From a virus (Duplodnaviria > Heunggongvirae > Uroviricota > Caudoviricetes): a DNA stretch of 64,000 nucleotides. The DNA lies in IMG/VR virus record IMGVR_UViG_2880372215_000004; one strand, given 5' to 3'. The notes under the pieces are model-generated. The model was not told where the DNA came from. It worked only from the letters and a program-made list of their open reading frames with translations, and ran no database searches. Numbering within the stretch: position 1 is the first letter of the stretch; each line of letters opens with the position of its first letter. The position numbers and the translations under genes are program-made. This document shows, one piece after another, positions 35,568-36,206 of this stretch.

Positions 35568-36206
35568 ATGTCTGCTTTGTATGAACGCTCACAGCTGACG
35601 CAGGTGATGATTTCATCTGCCCCGGCGACTGCTGAAACTATGGATAAGGCGGAATATCTGCGCCTGGACTGCACCATCAAGGAAGTCCAGTTCACCGCCG
35701 GTCAGAAACAGGATATTGATGTGACCACGCTCTGCTCCACAGAGCAGGAGAACATCAACGGTCTGGGGGCGTCGTCCGAGATTTCCATGTCGGGTAATTT
35801 TTATCTGAATCAGGCCCAGAACGCCCTGCGTGATGCCTATGACAATGACGCGTGTATGCGTTTAAGGTGCAGTTTCCGTCCGGTAAGGGCTTTAAGTTCC
35901 TGGCGGAAGTGCGTCAGCACACCTGGTCATCCGGTACCAACGGCGTGGTGGCTGCAACGTTTCACTTCGCTGAAGGGTAAACCGGTGTCCTATGTGGTAC
36001 CGCTGGCGTTTGTGAAAAATCCGGAGAAGACACTTACCGTGAATACCGGTGCGCTGCTGACAATGTCAGTCAGTGTCAACGGGGGAACGCCGCCTTATAA
36101 ACACGCCTGGAAGAAGGATGGTCAGCCGGTCGAGGGACAGACTACTGACACTTTCAGTAAAGCCAATGCGCAGTCAGGTGATAAGGGGGCTTATACCTGC
36201 AGGTAA
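35568..36206 (+). CDS. major tail protein with C-terminal Ig-like domain; frame disrupted near 35850
   Basis: ORF 35496..36206; CAGGAGG before ATG 35568; tail-like peptide VYAFKVQFPSGKGFKFLAEVRQHTWSSGTNGVVAATFHFAEG lies in another frame. Confidence 0.6.
   Translation: MSALYERSQLTQVMISSAPATAETMDKAEYLRLDCTIKEVQFTAGQKQDIDVTTLCSTEQENINGLGASSEISMSGNFYLNQAQNALRDAYDNDACMRLRCSFRPVRALSSWRKCVSTPGHPVPTAWWLQRFTSLKGKPVSYVVPLAFVKNPEKTLTVNTGALLTMSVSVNGGTPPYKHAWKKDGQPVEGQTTDTFSKANAQSGDKGAYTCR

Follow-up and report, generated by a model that had tools for sequence, protein, structure and literature searches.

Ig-like extensions of phage virion proteins are known to be produced by −1 or +1 programmed frameshifting, described cases including capsid protein 10B of phage T3, the head and tail proteins of Lactobacillus phage A2 and proteins of Listeria phages A118, A500 and PSA (PMC5009743). 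A different kind of precedent is the first assembly of E. coli EDL933, a genome with long phage-associated repeats, which contained 2,413 non-N ambiguous calls (PMC4132626). Here we examine a 64,000-nucleotide stretch of viral DNA (the window; IMG/VR record IMGVR_UViG_2880372215_000004, Caudoviricetes), in which a preliminary description had recognised a major tail protein with one internal frame break near 35851 and an Ig-like C-terminal domain in another frame, an arrangement that, it was suggested, may be partly natural.

The gene lies on the plus strand. As read from the window, it starts with an ATG at 35568, preceded by a ribosome-binding site, AGGAGG (35558-35563, plus strand), located 4 nt upstream. 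The N-terminal frame (MSALYERSQ...RDAYDNDA) extends to codon 95, a GCG at 35850-35852, after which the next frame encodes VYAFKVQFPSGKGFKFLAEVRQHTWSSGTNGVVAATFHFAEG (35852-35977), whose tail-like continuation begins VYAFKVQFPSGKGFKF, runs to ...ATF and is closed by a TAA stop at 35978-35980. The N-terminal frame is then resumed by KTLTVNTGALLTMSVSVNGGTPPYKHAWKKDGQPVEGQ...GAYTC, with its TAA stop at 36204-36206, and the Ig-like stretch TLTVNTGALL...GAYTC is therefore in the same frame as the N-terminus. These frames and stops are all present in the sequence as had been described, and the earlier observation is confirmed, though it was incomplete. The frame assigned to the middle segment stands, but the HFAEG that precedes its stop is not genuine sequence; it is out-of-frame text downstream of a second missing base, and the true sequence is ATFSLRLKGKPVSYVV. 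Similarly, the last 27 residues of the Ig-like domain (VTDSAEQPQSITSDACTVTVNGAGG and a stop) are found in a shifted frame that ends at 36280. Even so, the unrepaired window ORF scored above the Pfam cut-offs for Ig_3 and Ig_2 and slightly below that for I-set.

The 821-nt stretch containing the gene had 1,249 matching records, spread over 1,244 of the 5,426 complete E. coli genomes searched, and 92 more among phages; the matches are mostly lambdoid prophages of O157 and other Shiga-toxin-producing E. coli (STEC), together with Stx-converting phages. Each of the top matches is 825 nt long, compared to 821 nt in the window, and covers a CDS of 717 nt and 238 aa annotated as "major tail subunit" or "phage major tail protein". 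We fetched 20 homologous loci, and in all 20 the tube and Ig-like domains are encoded in frame in one uninterrupted ORF, which is 238 aa in 19 of them and annotated from an upstream start in the other. The assignment as a major tail protein was thus upheld by the annotated homologues and by the match of the intact protein to PHROG 158, "major tail protein" (E = 5e-118). The tail-tube domain corresponds to residues ~8-141 of the intact protein (35589-35987, plus strand); on an intact homologue, Pfam Phage_tail_2 matches residues 50-141 with 25.3 bits against a cut-off of 23.8, while Phage_TTP_11 scores 25.7 bits, below its own cut-off. The Ig-like nature of the C-terminus was likewise borne out. 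This domain (residues 149-233; 36009-36262, plus strand), which is in the tube-domain frame in all homologues, matches Ig_2 (37 bits), Ig_3 (35.9 bits) and I-set (32 bits) on the intact homologue, all above their cut-offs, and the C-terminal part of the intact protein has further matches among phage Ig-like decoration and tail proteins of solved structure. The gene is ordinary and already known: it encodes the major tail (tube) protein of a lambdoid prophage of the E. coli O157 type.

When the 821 nt were aligned with FRIK804 and Sakai Sp10 (ECs_1980), four single-base gaps and two substitutions emerged, so that the gene spans 713 nt in the window (35568-36280, plus strand) compared to 717 nt in every intact homologue. 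The preliminary description had located one break, near 35851; this break is real, but the alignment gives four, three of which had been overlooked. The first missing base falls between 35852 and 35853. It had been taken to be a G, which holds for Sp10-type alleles, while alleles of the type of NCCP 15739 and L011 (an nleA-type prophage of genome CP041747.1) carry a T in this polymorphic column (TGGGTGGT). The second, between 35961 and 35962, is a T or C in intact alleles (CTTTCCTC), and the third, between 35969 and 35970, a C or T (TCCCTTTT); both of these columns are polymorphic as well. The fourth lies at 36200-36202, on either side of A36201, where intact alleles read TGC ATG GTA or TGC GAG GTA and both adjacent columns are polymorphic; its loss creates the premature stop at 36204-36206. 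All four positions refer to the plus strand. Because the loss of bases one to three amounts to one codon, the Ig-like domain seemingly returns to the original frame. Restoring one base at each gap gives a single 717-nt ORF over 35568-36280 that encodes 238 aa, and the restored product is identical at 237 of 238 residues to the FRIK804 protein, WP_001275480.1, annotated as "major tail subunit".

The gene resides in a standard HK97/lambda-like morphogenesis module, which comprises terS, terL, protease-capsid, portal, connector, head closure, gp10-like, tail completion gp17, major tail, G/GT chaperone and tape measure genes. From tail completion through major tail and G/GT chaperone to tape measure, the order of the window ORFs agrees with the annotations of ten homologous loci, and Pfam assigns the chaperone and T parts. 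Between the tail completion and major tail genes, a GC-rich hairpin (CCCGC-CGCGT-GCGGG) with a T-run after it (35530-35551) resembles an intrinsic terminator; the T-run varies between T7 and T6 among alleles. Downstream, the same prophage carries nleA, nleH1-2 and nleF. The gene for minor tail protein L (40431-41014) is cut short, and J follows without the K (C40 peptidase) and I genes; NCCP 15739 has the same arrangement. From these L/K/I lesions, the prophage would probably be tail-defective independently of any artefact.

Single-base gaps are not restricted to the tail gene. The closest relative, E. coli NCCP 15739, is collinear with window positions 11000-60000 (49 kb, 99.83%), and relative to it the window has 26 one-base deletions, 55 substitutions and one T-run insertion that is also present in other intact alleles. 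The deletions are distributed over terL (19), portal (2), major tail (4) and a tail-fibre gene (1). With the exception of the deletion at 46536, all differences are confined to 27682-36200, and there are none in 11000-27681. In the terminase large subunit gene (27594-29236, plus strand), the 19 missing bases, all at sites that are polymorphic among prophage alleles, break the gene into several ORFs; the terL query spans 1,739-1,741 nt, whereas 93 of 93 phage records span 1,758-1,760 nt, ~19 more. The two portal gaps (32536-32792, plus strand, in a split gene at 31449-34026) differ in character. The gap at ~32539 is at a G/T polymorphic site and fits the artefact. That at 32792 shortens a G6 run to G5 and is common to three alleles from intact records, including EDL933, where the portal is annotated as "frameshifted", and Stx1_14744, where it is two ORFs, as in Sakai Sp10; the G5 run length looks like a natural, recurrent allele. 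The gap at 46536, which reduces C5 to C4 in the ORF at 45351-46934, is at a site where the four alleles checked do not differ. Through this gap, the ORFs for a "tail fiber N-terminal domain" and a "C-terminal domain" are joined into one of 527 aa. The ~40 residues that link them are out-of-frame text, so the gap probably represents a further error instead of the restoration of a full-length fibre.

To place the gaps relative to allelic variation, block 27560-36290 was aligned (MAFFT) with eight intact alleles, from NCCP 15739, two EDL933 assemblies (three loci), Balcarce_24.2, phage 2851, YYZ-2008 and Stx1_14744. In terL, the first three reference alleles were identical and the gaps seemed non-polymorphic, a discrepancy that disappeared once more diverse alleles were added. 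Polymorphic columns strictly coincide with 21 of the 25 gaps in the block, compared to an expectation of 8.5% (P = 2.8e-19), and the other four also fall on polymorphic columns after a 1-2 nt shift of MAFFT's merged or slid gap placement. The same correction clears the only three "private" substitutions of the window, leaving none. A similar picture emerges from two prophages that reside together in one O157 genome (CP041747.1), the nleA-type L011 and the sodC-type L012, which differ at 23 of the 717 tail-gene columns. All four tail-gene gaps are on those 23 columns (P = 1e-6), and at the remaining 19 the window agrees with L012 at 16 and with L011 at 3. Both prophages encode the window's identical 1026-aa tape measure protein, which means that the divergent block is bordered by long stretches that are nearly the same in both copies, as a collapsed or chimeric consensus requires; the pair also exemplifies the repeats that make such regions hard to assemble. 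In all ten contigs with the identical tape measure protein, the upstream genes encode a tail subunit of 238 aa and a terL product of 553 aa. The gaps appear private to the window: the identity ranking over the 5,426 complete E. coli genomes indicated no record that shares any of them, and the best of the 1,249 matches still shows all four tail-gene gaps. A short-query concatenated megablast for gap-sharing records reported intact alleles as well, with the best identity rank again corresponding to all four gaps. The truncated 212-aa ORF had no exact match in public assemblies.

A collapsed-repeat consensus is favoured because the gaps are 1 nt each, are accompanied by no private substitutions and coincide with differences between paralogues, and we consider it very probable that the frame breaks are an assembly artefact in which unresolved or ambiguous positions were dropped from such a consensus. 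The consensus would have been built across several near-identical prophages co-resident in one genome, and at some positions where the copies differ no base would have been written, either through omission by the caller or through later stripping of an ambiguity letter, a technical route that we infer. Each dropped position would now mimic a 1-nt deletion; terL would contain 19 of these, the major tail gene four and portal one. Two observations argue against the artefact as a universal cause. The 46536 gap lies off polymorphic sites among the four alleles checked, so that at least one gap may have another cause, and the 32792 portal gap is a natural allele found in other records. Indeed, O157 prophages do carry genuine frameshifted genes: the portal gene is annotated as "frameshifted" in both EDL933 and FRIK804, and Sakai has it split. 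Together with the L/K/I lesions of the window prophage itself, these cases lend some credence to a genuine pseudogene, in which the tail gene of a defective prophage truly lost four single bases by decay. However, decay would be expected to leave lesions common to related strains or mixed mutation types, and neither is seen. The 25 one-base deletions in 8.7 kb, with zero private substitutions and all on paralogue-polymorphic columns (P ~3e-19), are unlike decay, the identity ranking indicated no gap-sharing record, and flanks identical to those of NCCP 15739 imply too little time for such damage to accumulate. We therefore regard decay as improbable. Still less probable is that the bases were really lost when recombination or gene conversion between co-resident diverged prophages resolved mismatches as single-nucleotide deletions; were this so, terL, portal and the tail tube gene would have been inactivated in one event, by a mutational mechanism not previously described. 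Overall, only a slight doubt persists that the bases might be truly absent from the strain. As to the source of a collapsed consensus, the window is not the original EDL933 CP-933P with its ambiguity letters stripped, as the resequenced EDL933 nleA prophage is structurally different, diverging from the window in the early region, tape measure length, L/K/I genes and right flank. Methylation-motif or homopolymer errors were also rejected as the cause, as most gaps are outside homopolymers and CCWGG/GATC motifs.

The preliminary description had further proposed that the Ig-like extension is partly the product of programmed frameshifting, and had named alignment with intact homologues as a check; homologues that read into the Ig domain without a break in frame would count against it. 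All 20 fetched loci do so. The precedents in T3, A2 and the Listeria phages make natural recoding a legitimate idea, in which ribosomes (programmed frameshifting) or RNA polymerase (transcriptional slippage) would cross the breaks to yield the Ig-like domain or the whole protein, but these homologous loci all decode the domain in frame and the two-frame layout is not conserved. In addition, a scan of 35568-36290 found no X_XXY_YYZ slippery heptamer, recoding would have to occur four times, always in the same direction, and the break points are arbitrary polymorphic sites that lack a conserved signal. Natural recoding is the least credible of the readings, close to negligible; judging from these sequences, programmed frameshifting does not account for the Ig-like domain and the frameshift feature is not real. 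Directly downstream is an intact lambda-type G/GT tail assembly chaperone (36286-36965). Its Phage_TAC_1 gene (36286-36660) ends ...AGA AAA AAG TAG and contains the heptamer A_AAA_AAG at 36651-36657, after which the −1 frame runs on into a Phage_tail_T ORF that ends at 36965. By its sequence, this appears to be a genuine, conserved −1 frameshift site and the sole plausible programmed one in the neighbourhood.

If the collapsed-consensus reading is correct, window positions 27.6-36.3 kb would be a chimeric, base-dropping consensus of paralogous prophages, and its significance is that of a quality flag only; frameshift, pseudogene or "split gene" calls in this region (terL, portal, major tail) should not be taken as biology. 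The pattern may also serve as a general diagnostic, in that private 1-nt gaps that are all on paralogue-polymorphic columns would point to a collapsed-repeat assembly.

Compared to the early O157 assembly, the original EDL933 (NC_002655), the window appears to derive from the same kind of genome, one with long phage-associated repeats; ambiguous calls are found there, whereas the window contains only the letters A, C, G and T and is not the resequenced EDL933 nleA prophage. As in T3 10B and the A2 and Listeria systems, a major virion protein carries a C-terminal Ig-like domain, but in this case all intact homologues read through it in one frame and there is no slippery site. With lambda the window shares the −1 frameshift layout of the downstream G/GT chaperone, a gene separate from the major tail gene. 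Finally, relative to the major tail subunit of O157 lambdoid prophages (Sakai Sp10 ECs_1980/WP_001275480.1; PHROG 158), the tube and Ig-like domains and the gene neighbours are the same, and the window differs only by the four missing bases and by a mosaic of two known alleles at polymorphic sites.
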